Of a DNA stretch of 40,829 nucleotides, positions 15,118 to 40,829 are shown piece after piece. Source of the stretch: Escherichia phage P483; the sequence record NC_028822.1, one strand, 5' to 3'. Made by a program: the position numbers and the translations under genes. The notes beneath the pieces were generated by a model. It made no database searches and had not been told where the DNA came from. It saw only the letters and a list, made by a program, of their open reading frames with translations. Position 1 is the stretch's first letter; each line of letters starts with the position of its first letter.

Positions 15118-15258
15118 GTTGAATCTCCTTCTGTTGATTTATGATAAAAGTTTAAATGTGAGGTACTACTTGAAACGAGTTGGTTCTCATTGTGTATCAC
15201 TCAAAGGAAACACGAAGGACTCGAACCTTCAGACCAGACCTCACTCAATCTGGATGTG

Positions 15259-15281
15259 TCTCCCAATAGTGAGTCGTATTA
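15259..15281 (-). promoter_or_regulatory. Phage RNAP promoter phi10
   Basis: Minus strand reads TAATACGACTCACTATTGGGAGA. Confidence 0.9.
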
Positions 15282-18562: not shown

Positions 18563-18808
18563 CTAGGACTCAGCCTGTTCCTTACGGATTGCCTCCATGT
18601 CATCCAGAGTTTGAGACGCATAGTTGAGACCCGCGAGGAACCCAGCGATGTAGCTTTCAGACCATCCAGCCTGTTTCAATCGGTTGATTAGTCCTGACTG
18701 AATAGCATATCCAGCATTGTATTGAACCTGTAGGTACTCCATAGTTGCACGAGGCACATTAGGAATATCTTGTGGGTTCTCCATATACTTCTTGATAGGG
18801 GTTAACAT
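18563..18808 (-). CDS. Hypothetical protein (T7 gene 6.5 position)
   Basis: Start at internal ATG 18808 with SD AAGGAGA; 81 aa; follows promoter phi6.5. Confidence 0.7.
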   Translation of the reverse strand: MLTPIKKYMENPQDIPNVPRATMEYLQVQYNAGYAIQSGLINRLKQAGWSESYIAGFLAGLNYASQTLDDMEAIRKEQAES

Positions 18809-18859
18809 AATTAATGTTCTCCTTAAAGTTAAACTTAAAGTAGGTATCATATAGGCACC

Positions 18860-18882
18860 CCTCTCAATAGTGAGTCGTATTG
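18860..18882 (-). promoter_or_regulatory. Phage RNAP promoter phi6.5
   Basis: Minus strand reads CAATACGACTCACTATTGAGAGG. Confidence 0.8.
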
Positions 18883-23212: not shown

Positions 23213-23227
23213 ATTTCATACAAAAGT

Positions 23228-23268
23228 TAATCATGAAGGCCATCCGTTAAGATGACCTTTAGTTTAAC
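23228..23268 (-). other. Putative RNase III processing hairpin (R4.7 position)
   Basis: atcatGAAGGCCAtccgttaagaTGACCTTtAGTTtaac motif shared with five other sites. Confidence 0.45.
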
Positions 23269-23272
23269 TCTT

Positions 23273-30105: not shown

Positions 30106-30156
30106 GATGGAACTCCTATATGTGTGTGTGTTATGGTTAATGTTTAAACAAAAGTT

Positions 30157-30194
30157 AATCACAAAGGCCAACCTTTCGGATGACCTTGAGTCTA
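30157..30194 (-). other. Putative RNase III processing hairpin (R1.3 position)
   Basis: aatcacAAAGGCCAacctttcggaTGACCTTGAGTcta motif. Confidence 0.45.
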
Positions 30195-30196
30195 CC

Positions 30197-30219
30197 TCTC
30201 GCAATAGTGAGTCGTATTA
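30197..30219 (-). promoter_or_regulatory. Phage RNAP promoter phi1.3
   Basis: Minus strand reads TAATACGACTCACTATTGCGAGA. Confidence 0.8.
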
Positions 30220-30489
30220 TTTCCAGTGCTTCATATCACTGTGAACCTTGCGGAGCCATTCAGTCTGTGCATTACAGCGAACGTCTGCATCATCCTGTTC
30301 GAAACACTTAGCGGTCAGCATTAAGCCATCCCGTAAGACCACTCGAAGTGTCTCTCCTGCGACCATCCGGCGCTGTGCGAAGTCCTCATAGCGATAAGTC
30401 TCAACGACCACATTTGCATCATGGTCTTCTTTAAGTCGTTCGATAGCGTCTTTGTATGCTATTAAGTTACCACTGTATAAGCGACCCAT
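30217..30489 (-). CDS. 1.2: Inhibitor of host dGTPase (T7 gp1.2-like)
   Basis: 90 aa; N-terminus MGRLYSGNL and C-terminus ...KHWK resemble T7 gp1.2 as recalled. Confidence 0.8.
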   Translation of the reverse strand: MGRLYSGNLIAYKDAIERLKEDHDANVVVETYRYEDFAQRRMVAGETLRVVLRDGLMLTAKCFEQDDADVRCNAQTEWLRKVHSDMKHWK

Positions 30490-30638
30490 TAGAGTGCCTC
30501 CTTCCAGTTGCGTTTCTCAGAGTTTCCACGTTGTGTCTTGTGGCGTTTCTTCATGCGGTCTTTACGTTCCTGCCATTCAGCACCATGTTCATTGATGATG
30601 TTGTTGCGCTTAGTGGTTGGTTCAAAGTTGGTACGCAT
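30489..30638 (-). CDS. 1.1: Small basic protein (T7 gp1.1-like)
   Basis: 49 codons, MRTNFEPTTKRNNIINEHGAEWQERKDRMKKRHKTQRGNSEKRNWKEAL; SD AGAGGA; not in the ORF track. Confidence 0.7.
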   Translation of the reverse strand: MRTNFEPTTKRNNIINEHGAEWQERKDRMKKRHKTQRGNSEKRNWKEAL

Positions 30639-30673
30639 AATGTTATTTCCTCTTGGTAGTATCGTTGACAGTT

Positions 30674-30712
30674 AATAATGAAGGCCACCATGTAGATGAC
30701 CTTGAGTTTAAC
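30674..30712 (-). other. Putative RNase III processing hairpin (R1.1 position)
   Basis: aataatGAAGGCCAccatgtagaTGACCTTGAGTTtaac motif. Confidence 0.45.
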
Positions 30713-30720
30713 TTTCAGTG

Positions 30721-30743
30721 TTTCCCATTAGTGAGTCGTATTG
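30721..30743 (-). promoter_or_regulatory. Phage RNAP promoter phi1.1
   Basis: Minus strand reads CAATACGACTCACTAATGGGAAA. Confidence 0.8.
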
Positions 30744-31285
30744 TCTGCAACCTTACGTGCAATCTCAATGCGACCAGCTACGTCTTTCTTATAATAGGTG
30801 AACTCTTTGCGCTCACCATCAGTGCACGTCTGTGTCAGCAGGTAGCGGTCCGACTGTTCTTTCCAGTGCAAACATGTAACCTCTTTGCCGCAAGACCCTA
30901 TACCTAGCTTGAACTCAGTGCGCTTCCATCCAGCATCCGGGATGTGAGCAGTAAACTTGATAGACGTGATGTCACTGTGAGTGTACTCACGGATGGTACT
31001 CTTTGCCTCTTTAAGTTCCTTGCGGTACTCCACTGCCTCACCACGTAGACGCTCAATGAGTTCTCGTTGGTTCGACATGTCATATCGTTGTTCGAACTCT
31101 AAGGTACGGATTCGACCAGCTAGTTCCTGCTTCTCTCGCCATCCATCTTCAAGTCTCTCTTTGAGTGCATGAGAGTTCTTCTCTTCTTTGATTAGCTTAG
31201 TGAGAAATACATTTGAACGATTATAGTATGTTGCTGCAAGAATGGTTGATACGAGAACACCTACTGAAGTGATGAAAGTAAACAT
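30728..31285 (-). CDS. Hypothetical membrane-anchored coiled-coil protein (T3 gene 1.05 slot; no T7 counterpart)
   Basis: 185 aa; N-terminal TM helix MFTFITSVGVLVSTILAATYY, central charged coiled coil, C-terminal Cys-containing region; SD AAGAGGAAA; preceded by its own phage promoter. Confidence 0.7.
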   Translation of the reverse strand: MFTFITSVGVLVSTILAATYYNRSNVFLTKLIKEEKNSHALKERLEDGWREKQELAGRIRTLEFEQRYDMSNQRELIERLRGEAVEYRKELKEAKSTIREYTHSDITSIKFTAHIPDAGWKRTEFKLGIGSCGKEVTCLHWKEQSDRYLLTQTCTDGERKEFTYYKKDVAGRIEIARKVADNTTH

Positions 31286-31344
31286 GATTATGTTTCCTCT
31301 TAAAGTTAAACTTAAAGTTATCTTAAAGTAGGGAAACCCAAGGG

Positions 31345-31367
31345 TCTCCCAATAGTGAGTCGTATTA
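31345..31367 (-). promoter_or_regulatory. Phage RNAP promoter immediately downstream of gene 1 (T7 phi1.1A equivalent)
   Basis: Minus strand reads TAATACGACTCACTATTGGGAGA; the transcript starts with a 9-bp 5' stem-loop GGGAGACCC-UU-GGGUUUCCC. Confidence 0.9.
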
Positions 31368-31375
31368 GATTACCA

Positions 31376-34027
31376 TCAGGCAAAAGCGAAGTCTGACTTG
31401 AGGATTTCTTGGAGGTCGAGAGCACCTTTAGCTGGCATCTCAGGCATCTTGTCAAGCTGTGACTCGTGCAACTGCTCGGCAAATTGCTCATAGAAGTCTG
31501 CGAGTACATCGTTTTCTTCGTAAGTGTTGACCATCGTTTCACGCACTGCTTTAAACAGGTTGCCAGCATCAGCAGGGATAGTACCAAATGAGTCGTGAAT
31601 AAGTGCAAAGGATTCCACACCGTATACCTCATTGGAGCGCACTACAGTCATTCGCAGGTGGCTACCGTCCATTGAGTGAACAAAGTTAGGTGCGATGCCT
31701 GACTCCTGCTTACGTGCGTCAATTCCGCTATCCTTGTTGGTGTTCACGGTAGGCTGCAAACGAATCTGCCCCAAGAACATCAGGTTCAAACGAGTCTGTA
31801 CTGGCTTCTTGTATTCCTGCCAGACCGGGAAGCCATCAGGAGTTACCCAATGTACCGCGCAGCGCTTGCGGAGAACCTCTTTAGTCTTCTTGTCCTTGAC
31901 TTCAGCAGCTAGGAGTTTAGCCGCAGACTTCAGCCAGTTCATTGCTTCAACCGCAGCGACCACAGTCACTGTTACCGATTCCCAAATCAGTTTAGCCATA
32001 TAGCCAGCCGCTTGGTTCGGTTGAGTGAACATCAAGCCTTTACCATCGTCGATAGCTGGCTGAATGGTGTCCTCTAGCACTTGGTCACGGAAGCCGTACT
32101 CCTTGGACCCGTAAGCCAACGTCATGACCGAACGCTTAGTGACCTTGCGAGTCACACCGTAGGCCAGCCACTGACCAGCTAACTCTTTCGTTCCCAGCTT
32201 GAGCTTCTCAGTGATTTCACCAGTGTCCTTGTTTGTCACTGTTTCCACTTCGTTATCAGTGCCGTTGATTACCGCTTCGCGGAGCATCTCGTTCACACGT
32301 TCGGCAACGATGCGGTAGATGTCCTGTACTTCCTTGCTTGGCAGCAGGTTAACAGCGCGTCCACCTACTTCATCACGAAGCATTGCAGAGAAGTGTTGAA
32401 TACCAGAGCAAGAGCCATCGAACGCCAGCGGCAGAGAGCAGTTGTAGTTCATACCGTGGTGTTGCACACCTGCATACTCAAAGCAGAATGCGAGGAAGCA
32501 GAACGGAGAGTCTTGTTCAGCCCACCAAGTGTTAGCAATAGGGTCAGCCGCAACGCTCATGATGTTCTCGTGGTTGTCCTCAATGAACTTGATGCGTTCT
32601 GCAAAGTCCACCTTGTCCACACCAGCAGTGTTTGCACCGTGAATCTTCAGCCAGTAGTATCCATCAACACCGATTGGTTTACCTTTAGCGAGCGTTAACA
32701 GACCCTTGGTCATGTCGTTGCCTTGCGGGTTAAACATCGGTACAGCGTAGACACGACCGCGCCAGTCCATGTTCATAGGGAACCAGATAGCTTTAAACTG
32801 TGCGAACTTGTTGGCTTGCCCTAACATGAACTCCATGCTCATACGACGAGACACGCGAGCCTTCTCCTTGCGGTAGATTGCGGAGGCCGCTTTCTTCCAT
32901 GCTTTGAGTGCCGCTTCGTTCGTGTCGATGTCTTCAGGTTTAACCGGAAGTTCACCACGTTCGAGAGCAGGTACATCTTCAACCGGGCAATGCTTCCAGT
33001 TCACAATCTCGTTGACCACTGCCAGAACCTTCTTGTTAATCTTCCAAGGAGTATTCTGTGCGATGTTAACCGCCTTGTAAACTTCAGGCATATGCACGTC
33101 GTTGTAACGCTCAAGTCCCTTCTTGGAACCAGTGCGAACCAGAGAGAGAGGCTTGCGACCAGCAGCCCAATAGCCACCACCAACCGGAGAAGTCCAAGGC
33201 TTCGGAGGGACCACACAAGGTTGATACATTGGAGCGATTGCAGCCAGTGCACCAGCACGTTTAGATAACAGGTCAACGTATTGTTCGGTTAACTGGATGT
33301 ACTCACCATCCTTCTCAACGTTACCAGCAAACGGTCGGTGTAACTCAACGAGACCAGTAGACCCAATGAGCAGTTCCAACATACGTACACCAACGTGGAT
33401 TGCTTCTTCAGGTGTCCATGTGGTCCACTTGGTTTGCAGTTGACCAGCATCTAACATCTTGCCTTCTACTGCTTGCATGAATGCCTTCTTGTAGACGATA
33501 CCTACGCGCTTGTTTAGTGCTTCCTGTACGTGATTCTTAAAGTGCTTCGCTTCTTCGTCACGAATGCGACCGAAACGCAGTTCATCTTCAATGCTGCGAC
33601 CAATCTTAGTTGCGACCGCTTGCAGGTTGGTGTATTCCTCTTTGGTTAAACAAGCCAGTGTGACCTTCAGTGTGATGAAAGCAGCCGCTTCAGGTGCAAC
33701 CTTCTGTACCAGATTATAGGCCACTGGACGCTTACCGCGCTTAGATTCCACTTCAGTGAACCAAGTGTTCCACGCCTCGATAAACTTCGGTGCGAGGGAT
33801 GACAGGAGAGGTTTAGCCACTGCGTTGTCACCGAACTCACCCGCTTTGATTTGACGCTCCATTGCCTTAAGGAAACGCTTCTCGCCCTCAGTGTGCGCTT
33901 CGTGTTCTAACTCAAGCTGAGTAGCAGCAAGCTGTGCGCCGTAATGGTCAGCCAGAATGTTGTACGGCTGGATTGCGTTAGCGATGTCAGAGAAGTCATT
34001 CTTTGGTGCATTGATTACGTTAGTCAT
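31376..34027 (-). CDS. 1: DNA-directed RNA polymerase, single subunit (T7 gp1-like)
   Basis: 883 aa, identical in length to T7 RNAP; long stretches match as recalled, including the specificity-loop region RKRCAVHWVTPDGFPVWQEYKKP and QPTVNTNKDSGIDARKQESGIAPNFVHS. Confidence 0.97.
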   Translation of the reverse strand: MTNVINAPKNDFSDIANAIQPYNILADHYGAQLAATQLELEHEAHTEGEKRFLKAMERQIKAGEFGDNAVAKPLLSSLAPKFIEAWNTWFTEVESKRGKRPVAYNLVQKVAPEAAAFITLKVTLACLTKEEYTNLQAVATKIGRSIEDELRFGRIRDEEAKHFKNHVQEALNKRVGIVYKKAFMQAVEGKMLDAGQLQTKWTTWTPEEAIHVGVRMLELLIGSTGLVELHRPFAGNVEKDGEYIQLTEQYVDLLSKRAGALAAIAPMYQPCVVPPKPWTSPVGGGYWAAGRKPLSLVRTGSKKGLERYNDVHMPEVYKAVNIAQNTPWKINKKVLAVVNEIVNWKHCPVEDVPALERGELPVKPEDIDTNEAALKAWKKAASAIYRKEKARVSRRMSMEFMLGQANKFAQFKAIWFPMNMDWRGRVYAVPMFNPQGNDMTKGLLTLAKGKPIGVDGYYWLKIHGANTAGVDKVDFAERIKFIEDNHENIMSVAADPIANTWWAEQDSPFCFLAFCFEYAGVQHHGMNYNCSLPLAFDGSCSGIQHFSAMLRDEVGGRAVNLLPSKEVQDIYRIVAERVNEMLREAVINGTDNEVETVTNKDTGEITEKLKLGTKELAGQWLAYGVTRKVTKRSVMTLAYGSKEYGFRDQVLEDTIQPAIDDGKGLMFTQPNQAAGYMAKLIWESVTVTVVAAVEAMNWLKSAAKLLAAEVKDKKTKEVLRKRCAVHWVTPDGFPVWQEYKKPVQTRLNLMFLGQIRLQPTVNTNKDSGIDARKQESGIAPNFVHSMDGSHLRMTVVRSNEVYGVESFALIHDSFGTIPADAGNLFKAVRETMVNTYEENDVLADFYEQFAEQLHESQLDKMPEMPAKGALDLQEILKSDFAFA

Positions 34028-37210: not shown

Positions 37211-37412
37211 AGATACTCAATGGTCACTTACAGATAGGGACACAGAGACACTAAGTTATCCACAGAGTTACCAACAGTCTCACCTAAAGTTATCCACACA
37301 GCCTCTAACCTAGAGTTATCCACAGAGTTATCCATAGGTTATCCACAAGTTATCCACAAGTTATCTACAGGGTTACCCACAGGGGGGAAACCACTATGTA
37401 TGAACTATGAGA
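37190..37412 (-). repeat. Predicted terminal direct repeat with the left physical genome end at about 37412 (boundaries approximate)
   Basis: Minus strand from 37412 reads TCTCATAGTTCATACATAGTGG...CCCCCC, like the T3/T7 left end (TCTCA...) as recalled; GTGTCTCTGTGTCCCTATCTGT (37225-37250) matches the end of the T7 terminal repeat. Confidence 0.4.
37246..37381 (+). repeat. Array of eight DnaA-box-like 9-mers (five exact TTATCCACA) in the predicted terminal-repeat region
   Basis: TTATCCACA at 37246, 37290, 37316, 37339, 37350; TTATCCATA at 37328; TTATCTACA at 37361; TTACCCACA at 37373; all same orientation. Confidence 0.8.
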
Positions 37413-40424: not shown

Positions 40425-40829
40425 TTACTTCTCCTTCTTAGCTTGCATTTCAGTTATTGTATTTTGGAGCGCCTTAATCCACGCATCCCCTCTTTGAGTT
40501 ACTCCGATAAGACGCTTACTAAACTCTTCGTCAAGTTCGGCTCGACCATCAACGAGGCATCCACCATTAGCTTGGAGTTCTCGTGTGGTGGCTGATAGTT
40601 TGACGCGCAAGCGCTTACCATCGTTACGCAAATCATTAATGACCCTATCAGTGCTGCCCTCCAGCGCCGCAAGGTCTTCTTGGTATTGTCGTGAGATTTC
40701 GTTGATAGCAGCTTGTTTATCCTCAGTCGCCTTAACTTTCTTAACGTACTCATTGTGCACCTCCTGTTCCCATTTAGTGTTAGCTTTGTCATAGCCGTGG
40801 TTATACGCAAGGGTAACACCCAAGGCAAA
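40425..40829 (-). CDS. 18.5: i-spanin Rz (T7 gp18.5-like), 3' part; the 5' end lies beyond the window end (equivalent to 1..265)
   Basis: Continuous with the copy at the window start; resembles T7 gp18.5 as recalled. Confidence 0.8.
   Translation of the reverse strand, partial: FALGVTLAYNHGYDKANTKWEQEVHNEYVKKVKATEDKQAAINEISRQYQEDLAALEGSTDRVINDLRNDGKRLRVKLSATTRELQANGGCLVDGRAELDEEFSKRLIGVTQRGDAWIKALQNTITEMQAKKEK
40499..40753 (-). CDS. 18.7: o-spanin Rz1 (T7 gp18.7-like), embedded in Rz in the +1 frame
   Basis: ATG 40753 with SD GGAGGTG; MSTLRKLRRLRINK...LIGSLMICVTMVSACAS (lipoprotein signal and Cys) ...SLMVEPNLT resembles T7 gp18.7 as recalled. Confidence 0.8.
   Translation of the reverse strand: MSTLRKLRRLRINKLLSTKSHDNTKKTLRRWRAALIGSLMICVTMVSACASNYQPPHENSKLMVDASLMVEPNLTKSLVSVLSE
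40604..40829. repeat. 226-bp exact duplication of window positions 1-226 (circular-permutation overlap, not a biological repeat)
   Basis: Direct comparison of window start and end. Confidence 0.95.

Follow-up and report, generated by a model that had tools for sequence, protein, structure and literature searches.

Replication of phage T7 starts at the promoters phi1.1A and phi1.1B (PMC8373140), and these two promoters are all that lies between T7 genes 1 and 1.1. Other phages of the T7 group carry a gene in the same interval, already named 1.05 in the records of BA14, 285P, Kvp1, phiSG-JL2 and KP32, and the Kvp1 paper, comparing that phage with phage Berlin, counts it as one of the differing regions (PMC2579914). 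The BA14 record gives a promoter phi1.05, a gene 1.05 noted as a 'fusion protein with gene 1.05' and a promoter phi1.1, all at positions equivalent to those described below. In T3 the gene likewise follows gene 1 and has a promoter phi1.05 with a 5' hairpin, but its product (gp1.05) is a 90-residue domain alone, lacking anchor and long helix. Here we examine the corresponding gene in Escherichia phage P483 (NC_028822.1), analysed as one stretch of 40,829 nucleotides, hereafter the window. We find an already annotated gene under purifying selection, in which a small beta domain of constant type is joined to an exchangeable, probably membrane-anchored helix, and which is probably expressed from a leader of the type used by the capsid gene; close relatives dispense with it, and a role in capturing a host factor at the inner membrane is tentatively proposed.

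By its sequence the window is the genome of a Berlinvirus, a BA14/285P-like phage of the T7 group: DNA identity around the locus is 92.7-95.9% with Escherichia phages nasanit, ErnstBeyeler (Bas67), 285P and BA14, all of them classified as Berlinvirus. The minus strand carries all long open reading frames (ORFs) of the window as well as every feature of the locus described here. The ORF in question (30728-31285) encodes 185 amino acids plus a stop codon from an ATG start, between genes 1 and 1.1, as a first-pass annotation of this DNA, made from the letters alone, had read it; that annotation had also equated the position with the slot called 1.05 in T3 and held that T7 has no gene there, and both points are borne out; the gene follows gene 1 behind its own phage promoter phi1.05. 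The protein is 84-98% identical in amino acid sequence to annotated Berlinvirus proteins and to unnamed database clusters. It resembles the BA14, 285P and Kluyvera phage Kvp1 proteins over its full length, and shares with those genes the slot between 1 and 1.1, the length of 185 residues, the leader and both promoters, phi1.05 and phi1.1, at the expected places; DNA identity over the locus is 92-94% and protein identity 94-96%, with point differences only and no function given in the records. Residues 106-176 match, essentially end to end, positions 2-72 of the 73 in the model of the Pfam family PF25755 (Phage_T3_1_05, 'Enterobacteria phage T3 gene 1.05 protein') with 102.5 bits and E = 1.2e-29, far above the curated gathering threshold of 27 bits. 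We are therefore confident from these comparisons that the ORF is gene 1.05, already annotated and covered by a Pfam family, and not a new gene. The first-pass annotation, which suspected host takeover, superinfection exclusion or counter-defence, allowed that the product might simply be the conserved T3 gp1.05 with a known, ordinary role; the first half of this proved right and the second did not, as the literature on gp1.05, gene 1.05, PF25755, the nonessential genes of phiYeO3-12 and Berlinvirus yielded annotation tables and the one genome-comparison remark, with no functional study found, and a preprint on a phage accessory-gene screen does not mention the gene 1.05 protein. The three suspected roles are neither backed nor contradicted by the present results.

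The gene is clearly maintained as a coding sequence. Over 45 pairwise comparisons among ten Berlinvirus genomes, in all of which the reading frame is intact, the ratio of nonsynonymous to synonymous divergence (dN/dS) is 0.09 for the whole gene; residues 1-100 give 0.13 and residues 101-185 give 0.055, and synonymous divergence (dS) reaches 0.8 among the ten copies. From these substitution patterns we are confident that gene 1.05 is a real gene with both halves under purifying selection. Plus-strand ORFs at 30653-30907 and 30981-31172 were rejected as candidates, as all phage genes are on the other strand and the selection signal is in the minus-strand frame.

The protein can be divided into three parts. 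Residues 1-21 (31223-31285) form an N-terminal hydrophobic segment, with a Kyte-Doolittle mean of 1.87 over residues 1-19 against the usual membrane-helix cut-off of 1.6; a rough sum of the insertion energy, using Hessa-scale values, comes to a borderline +0.75 kcal/mol. A hydrophobic segment is kept in 118 of 121 homologues, so the transmembrane helix proposed at first pass appears plausible, although in this phage the anchor would be only moderately hydrophobic. Residues 22-102 (30980-31222) are predicted to form a long charged helix, a putative coiled-coil stalk, and residues 106-177 (30755-30970) the T3 gp1.05 domain with six beta strands. Structure prediction had been named at first pass as a check on the protein: AlphaFold2, given 81 aligned homologues, returned a single helix over residues 2-102 (predicted local distance difference test, pLDDT, 90-96) and the six strands over residues 106-177, with a mean pLDDT of 88.9. 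The long helix of the 'long charged coiled coil' thus stands, while its coiled-coil character is less certain, since the best heptad register has hydrophobic residues at just 14 of 23 a/d positions, a moderate pattern, and Pfam coiled-coil matches are sub-threshold only.

The most conserved features of the domain are the glycine-rich loop LGxGxCG, to which C132 belongs, the motif GR(I/V)E on the final strand and a pair of strands with DG..K.F.Y. The C-terminal cysteine region pointed out earlier (CGKEVTCLHW...CTDG) is present, with C132, C138 and C154. In a 23-sequence alignment C132 and C154 each reach at least 90%, one close homologue having R at 132 and T3 lacking C154; in a 14-sequence alignment of the domain C132 is invariant, and it is present in every distant member examined. 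Position 138 is often A, and position 154 is C, H, T or S, with H, T or S in distant members, which leaves C132 as the sole cysteine kept across the whole family. A zinc-binding motif with four Cys/His ligands was accordingly rejected, and neither the alignments nor the distant members show a conserved second cysteine able to pair with C132 in a disulfide. A P-loop (Walker A, GxxxxGK[ST]) was rejected as well, its lysine being unconserved and the fold all-beta; the loop reads GLGPCGKT in some distant members, GIGSCGKE in the window and GPCGLH in the KP32 type. On inspection of the sequence a cleaved Sec signal peptide was rejected too, for there is no basic n-region, the sole Ala-Ala has L/A at -3/-1 and no AxA site occurs. 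Basic residues (R23, K30 and K33) follow the anchor and none precedes it, and these flanking charges, which would put the C terminus inside, together with stand-alone family members that have no export signal, lead us to place the domain in the cytoplasm, in keeping with C132 having no conserved disulfide partner; the predicted arrangement is that of a bitopic inner-membrane protein with its N terminus out and its C terminus in.

Across phages the domain is the constant unit and what precedes it is variable. A translated search found gp1.05 in 552 of 50,697 phage records, mostly Klebsiella phages of the genus Przondovirus, and an exhaustive profile search with the domain alone recovered 274 cluster representatives from a library clustered at 50% identity; starting from the T3 protein, a search brought up only a single cluster. 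Among the best 150 of the 274 representatives, 78 are bare domains and 72 are extended N-terminally by 45 residues or more, with a membrane segment included in 54; of the other 18, at least 13 are clearly helical, coiled-coil-like sequences, three narrowly miss the hydrophobicity cut-off and two cannot be assigned clearly. This survey makes the small beta domain the constant unit, the helical stalk its common partner and the membrane anchor a frequent addition. Scans of ten family members with extra sequence found no additional Pfam domain. Among the predicted viral protein structures of BFVD the same fold occurs in T7-like phages infecting Pseudomonas, Ralstonia, Delftia, Aeromonas and Vibrio, always in uncharacterised proteins that belong to this family. 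Pseudomonas phage PPpW-4 (L020, 3375-3680) has a stand-alone 1.05-domain gene just upstream of its RNA polymerase gene, in the host-transcribed early region, so the domain is not tied to the slot after the polymerase. Several distant members that have no N-terminal membrane segment (P0175, P0188, P0192, P0194, P0216 and P0220) end in a short basic tail, for example RARLMSRRHFR, which could be a membrane-binding or nucleic-acid-binding helix.

The variability of the N-terminal half takes the form of replacement. Among 81 homologues this half falls into 13 clusters at 40% identity, against one for the domain, and in phages Carena and LPST144 the DNA matches that of the window at about 90-100% on both sides and at 30-64% over exactly the first 300 nt of the gene; borders as sharp as these indicate replacement of a cassette, not gradual drift. 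Judged from the alignments, the anchor-plus-helix half is thus a cassette exchanged between phages while the domain stays constant, an observation that is new here. The whole gene can also be lost. Shigella phage A7 (VB_Ship_A7; L006, 630-720) is a Berlinvirus without gene 1.05, in which the phi1.05 promoter, the hairpin, the repeats and the ribosome-binding site lead directly into the ATG of gene 1.1, a clean natural deletion; genes 1.05 and 1.1 share a AAGAGGAAA block before their ATG, and this shared block could have guided the deletion. P151 retains only the first 67 residues of gp1.05, and Escherichia phage P694 (L007, 716-1119) has a second 1.1-1.2 pair in the 1.05 slot, giving two annotated dGTPase-inhibitor genes in tandem. 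A deletion, a truncation and a replacement in three phages mark the gene as accessory and the slot as a site of turnover. That gene 1.05 is dispensable, close relatives surviving without it, is likewise new here, and on these genome comparisons we state it with confidence.

The signals in front of the gene resemble those of a capsid gene in type, if not in every part. The window holds eleven 23-bp promoter-like sites of T7 type where none is expected by chance. The phi1.05 site (TAATACGACTCACTATTGGGAGA, 31345-31367), annotated as phi1.05 in BA14 and Kvp1, is identical to the promoter upstream of the capsid gene (15259-15281) and differs from the T7 consensus at one position, -1, where it has T and not A. 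The 'perfect consensus' claimed at first pass therefore applies to the consensus of this phage itself but not to that of T7. By analogy with T7 promoters, transcription would start at 31350, at the edge of a 5' hairpin (GGGAGACCC-TTG-GGGTTTCCC, 31330-31350) of 8-9 bp and -13 kcal/mol, in good agreement with the 9-bp stem-loop described before; 17 related leaders share it, their stems showing at least four different sequences, and it also occurs in the T7 phi10 leader. In Bas67 (ErnstBeyeler, L010) the hairpin loop has a run of nine G (GGGAGACCCTTGGGGGGGGGTTTCCC) against three to five in relatives, which is either slippage or a sequencing artefact. Such 5' hairpins stabilise late messages of T7. 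The AT-rich leader continues with three copies of ACTTTAAG within 31 nt (31299-31329; the last copy within TTTAACTTTAAGAGGA), the triple repeat noticed at first pass, out of nine copies in the whole window against 1.36 expected; two or three ACTT(T/A)AAG units are also retained in the T3 and KP32 leaders. What did not survive is the strong Shine-Dalgarno sequence, which is moderate: the core GAGG (31296-31299) lies 10 nt before the ATG, and its duplex with the anti-Shine-Dalgarno sequence is worth -6.0 kcal/mol, whereas the capsid gene reaches -8.8 and gene 1.2 reaches -11.7.

With a 23-bp promoter that fits the consensus of this phage, a hairpin starting at +1 and a TTAACTTTA block before the ribosome-binding site, the leader belongs by sequence to the capsid-gene type. 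In T7 gene 10, the TTAACTTTA block is the element that Olins and Rangwala reportedly described in 1989 as the 'epsilon' translational enhancer. The part of the leader nearest the gene (31278-31318, TTTAACTTTAAG...ATG) recurs at 18801-18841, after a promoter at 18860-18882, with 83% identity over 41 nt, and this 41-nt ribosome-binding segment appears to be a reused leader module. At its other end the gene runs into the next promoter: its last five codons and stop (D-N-T-T-H-stop) are themselves phi1.1 (CAATACGACTCACTAATGGGAAA, 30721-30743; annotated as phi1.1 in BA14 and Kvp1), which is why the tail of gp1.05 is conserved. Just downstream, a hairpin of two stems around an internal loop (30666-30717; -18.4 kcal/mol, z = -2.3) resembles the RNase III site R1.1, which phiSG-JL2 annotates at the same place. 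The phi1.05 transcript is probably cut there, and a cut at this hairpin would leave a short message with gene 1.05 alone.

The same DNA may have a second use. In T7, the AT-rich DNA that follows phi1.1B includes TTTAACTTTAAG and CTTAAG motifs; the leader in the window, at 28-35% GC, is the most AT-rich part of the locus, a putative replication origin is entered for the equivalent promoter phi1.05 and its leader in the record of phiSG-JL2, and A7 retains the phi1.05 leader while having lost the gene. These parallels suggest that the phi1.05 region is the counterpart, in this phage group, of the T7 primary origin, the match of the leader to the T7 gene 10 leader and to the T7 origin region being new here, and promoter and repeats alike may function in replication as well as in expression.

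We regard the following account of the gene, which joins its identity, architecture and expression to a membrane-tethered mechanism and a neighbouring origin, as the best explanation overall and hold it, as a whole, to be somewhat more likely than not. The phage RNA polymerase would transcribe gene 1.05 from phi1.05 into a message that a hairpin at its start would stabilise, that would have an AT-rich leader of the T7 gene 10 kind and that would probably be cut at the R1.1-like hairpin just downstream; early transcripts made by the host polymerase through gene 1 should cover gene 1.05 too. The anchor would insert with its N terminus outside, leaving helix and domain facing the cytoplasm, and the helix would pair into a stalk that keeps at least two domains a few nanometres away from the inner membrane on its cytoplasmic side. 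The domain would then bind a partner in the cytoplasm, for which a host protein is likelier than nucleic acid, and hold or inactivate it at the membrane, to a benefit that would be accessory and host-dependent, not essential. The promoter and AT-rich leader would probably also be the primary replication origin, as phi1.1A/B are in T7. The preference for a protein partner comes from the net charge of the domain, which over 143 representatives has a mean of +0.7 (range -7 to +9), a near-neutral value that does not favour a general nucleic-acid binder. An accessory role in host interaction is compatible with the dispensability of the gene, with the exchange of its N-terminal cassettes and with the second dGTPase-inhibitor cassette in the slot in P694. 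The mechanism itself, in which a stalk would keep the domains beneath the inner membrane, where they would capture a partner from the cytoplasm, is put forward tentatively, as a proposal we would sooner expect to fail than to hold.

Several points weigh against this account. No homology or experiment ties the domain to an activity, and PHROGs lists it as of unknown function; PADLOC and NCBIfam gave no matches to gp1.05, and families known for anti-defence or superinfection exclusion had no match in Pfam, PHROGs, PADLOC or NCBIfam, none of which is a dedicated anti-defence library. A profile search against the sequences of solved structures produced coiled-coil noise only (best E = 0.09) and hence no solved relative, and Foldseek against solved structures nothing better than E = 0.15. 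We infer the topology, the oligomeric state and the partner alike, and the anchor of this phage is just moderately hydrophobic. The fast turnover of the N-terminal half could come from low constraint on a stalk and not from an arms race. A general tie of the gene to the origin position, finally, had to be given up, because PPpW-4 has the gene upstream of its polymerase.

Among the other explanations, the one that grants the gene least is that the ORF is unexpressed or a decaying remnant, an idea prompted by its truncated versions in P151 and in cluster P0032 and by its complete absence from one relative; against a dN/dS of 0.09 over 45 pairs with dS up to 0.8, a frame intact in ten Berlinvirus genomes, and a consensus promoter and ribosome-binding site of its own, it is barely credible. 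It is easier to suppose that promoter, hairpin and ACTTTAAG repeats are mainly a replication origin and promoter, and that gene 1.05 is a passenger between origin elements with little function of its own, as T7 has phi1.1A/B and an AT-rich stretch with TTTAACTTTAAG and CTTAAG here and no gene (PMC8373140), phiSG-JL2 labels the phi1.05 leader a putative origin, and A7 loses the gene yet retains the leader. This too we think unlikely, if the least so of the alternatives, given purifying selection on both halves of the gene and a domain kept across the 552 phage records and many host genera; the leader module also precedes an unrelated gene (18801-18841) and the T7 capsid gene, which fits an expression signal, and the origin and expression readings are in any case compatible, not mutually exclusive.

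Where the product is granted a function, its location and its target can be read differently. In a periplasmic orientation the N-terminal segment would be a signal anchor, with helix and domain outside the cytoplasm and acting on the envelope; C132 and C154 are nearly invariant among enterobacterial members, and there are bitopic proteins, MreC and FtsB among them, whose coiled coil and beta domains lie in the periplasm, but the basic residues stand only after the hydrophobic segment, gp1.05 has no AxA-type cleavage site, export signals are missing from the members that stand alone, and distant members have H, T or S at position 154, so that we consider this orientation very improbable. Superinfection exclusion, in which tethered gp1.05 would block entry of a second T7-like genome at the inner membrane, for example by binding ejection or entry proteins, would suit the predicted membrane location, the early-to-middle expression, the dispensability of the gene and a membrane-facing module that varies between related phages, as expected if its targets were phage-specific. 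However, nearly half of the family has no membrane anchor and T3 has the bare domain, so the conserved activity cannot depend on the membrane; nor is there a Pfam or PHROGs match to any named family of known function, exclusion proteins included, and we judge exclusion unlikely. Slightly less likely still is a nucleic-acid tether, a small beta-barrel of Sm/Hfq/WYL type that would bind RNA or single-stranded DNA and hold transcripts or the adjacent origin at the membrane: the gene does lie beside the putative origin, and several distant members have basic C-terminal tails, but the charge of the domain averages close to zero and is negative in many members, and in PPpW-4 the gene is located elsewhere. 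Capture of a cytoplasmic host protein under the membrane remains our preferred, if tentative, reading.

A wider form of that reading is that the gp1.05 domain is an unrecognised host-targeting module of T7-group phages, turned by interchangeable anchor and coiled-coil cassettes into a membrane sequestration device for a host factor; this we find rather doubtful. If it were true, the captured cytoplasmic factor might be a defence or a housekeeping protein, cassette swapping would record an arms race, and more than 500 sequenced phages, many therapeutic Klebsiella phages among them, would carry an uncharacterised counter-defence or takeover gene. The gene as such is ordinary and already annotated; its value lies in a well-defined orphan domain conserved across T7-group phages of many host genera and in an easy study system, with A7 as a natural clean deletion control and Bas67 and Bas68 as BASEL carriers.

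The neighbours of the gene are those of the T7 group. Upstream lies gene 1 (31376-34027), an 883-aa ORF that is the phage single-subunit RNA polymerase in every matching record; downstream lie gene 1.1 (30489-30638) and gene 1.2, the host dGTPase inhibitor (30217-30489), both identified by their ORFs and record annotations. Elsewhere, two hairpin-forming stretches of 57 nt (30143-30199 and 23215-23271) are 81% identical, and one of them follows a promoter (30197-30219) before the ligase gene; in sequence the pair look like RNase III-type processing sites. The capsid leader (15118-15258) is long, with about 140 nt from promoter to gene against about 64 nt in T7, and within it GAAGGTTCGAGTCCTTC (15214-15230) matches a tRNA T-arm, where neither ARAGORN nor Rfam finds an RNA gene; over the whole window, too, Rfam at gathering thresholds and ARAGORN gave no matches. 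Between the terminase gene and the early genes there is a short non-coding array (37254-37381) of AGTTATCCACA-type repeats, of a kind typical of the genome-end region in T7-group phages. The ends of the window, positions 1-226 and 40604-40829, are identical over 226 nt, from which it follows that the window is one full genome, circularly permuted, whose unit length is 40,603 bp; the repeated stretch resembles an overlap from assembly, or else the terminal repeat placed at an arbitrary cut.

The P483 gene can also be compared with the systems already described. With T3 gp1.05 it shares the domain, at 37% identity in the 23-sequence alignment (39% over the domain). The 'fusion protein' gp05 of Klebsiella phage KP32 (Przondovirus) has the same three-part architecture and position, and its leader likewise has a 5' hairpin and three repeats (ACTTAAAG), but overall identity is 29%, the N-terminal half cannot be aligned by sequence and the lysine of GxGPCGK is leucine. 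In structure models the best matches to the domain, by size and all-beta meander topology, would be small beta-barrel folds such as Sm/Hfq, WYL, SspB and ribosomal protein L19. The T7 gene 10 leader (TTTAACTTTAAGAAGGAG) resembles that of gene 1.05 in its consensus promoter, its GGGAGACC...GGTTTCCC hairpin and the TTTAACTTTAAGA(A)GGA block that follows before the start codon, whereas the leader in the window has ACTTTAAG tripled and serves an accessory gene of the middle region; the phi1.1B/origin leader of T7 has the same repeat block as the ACTTTAAG region. The T7 primary origin as a whole (phi1.1A, phi1.1B and the AT-rich region) corresponds to the locus in its position after gene 1, in a promoter followed by AT-rich DNA and in its CTTTAAG/CTTAAG motifs (PMC8373140), but no gene lies between its promoters, whereas the two promoters in the window flank gene 1.05 and their role as an origin is putative.

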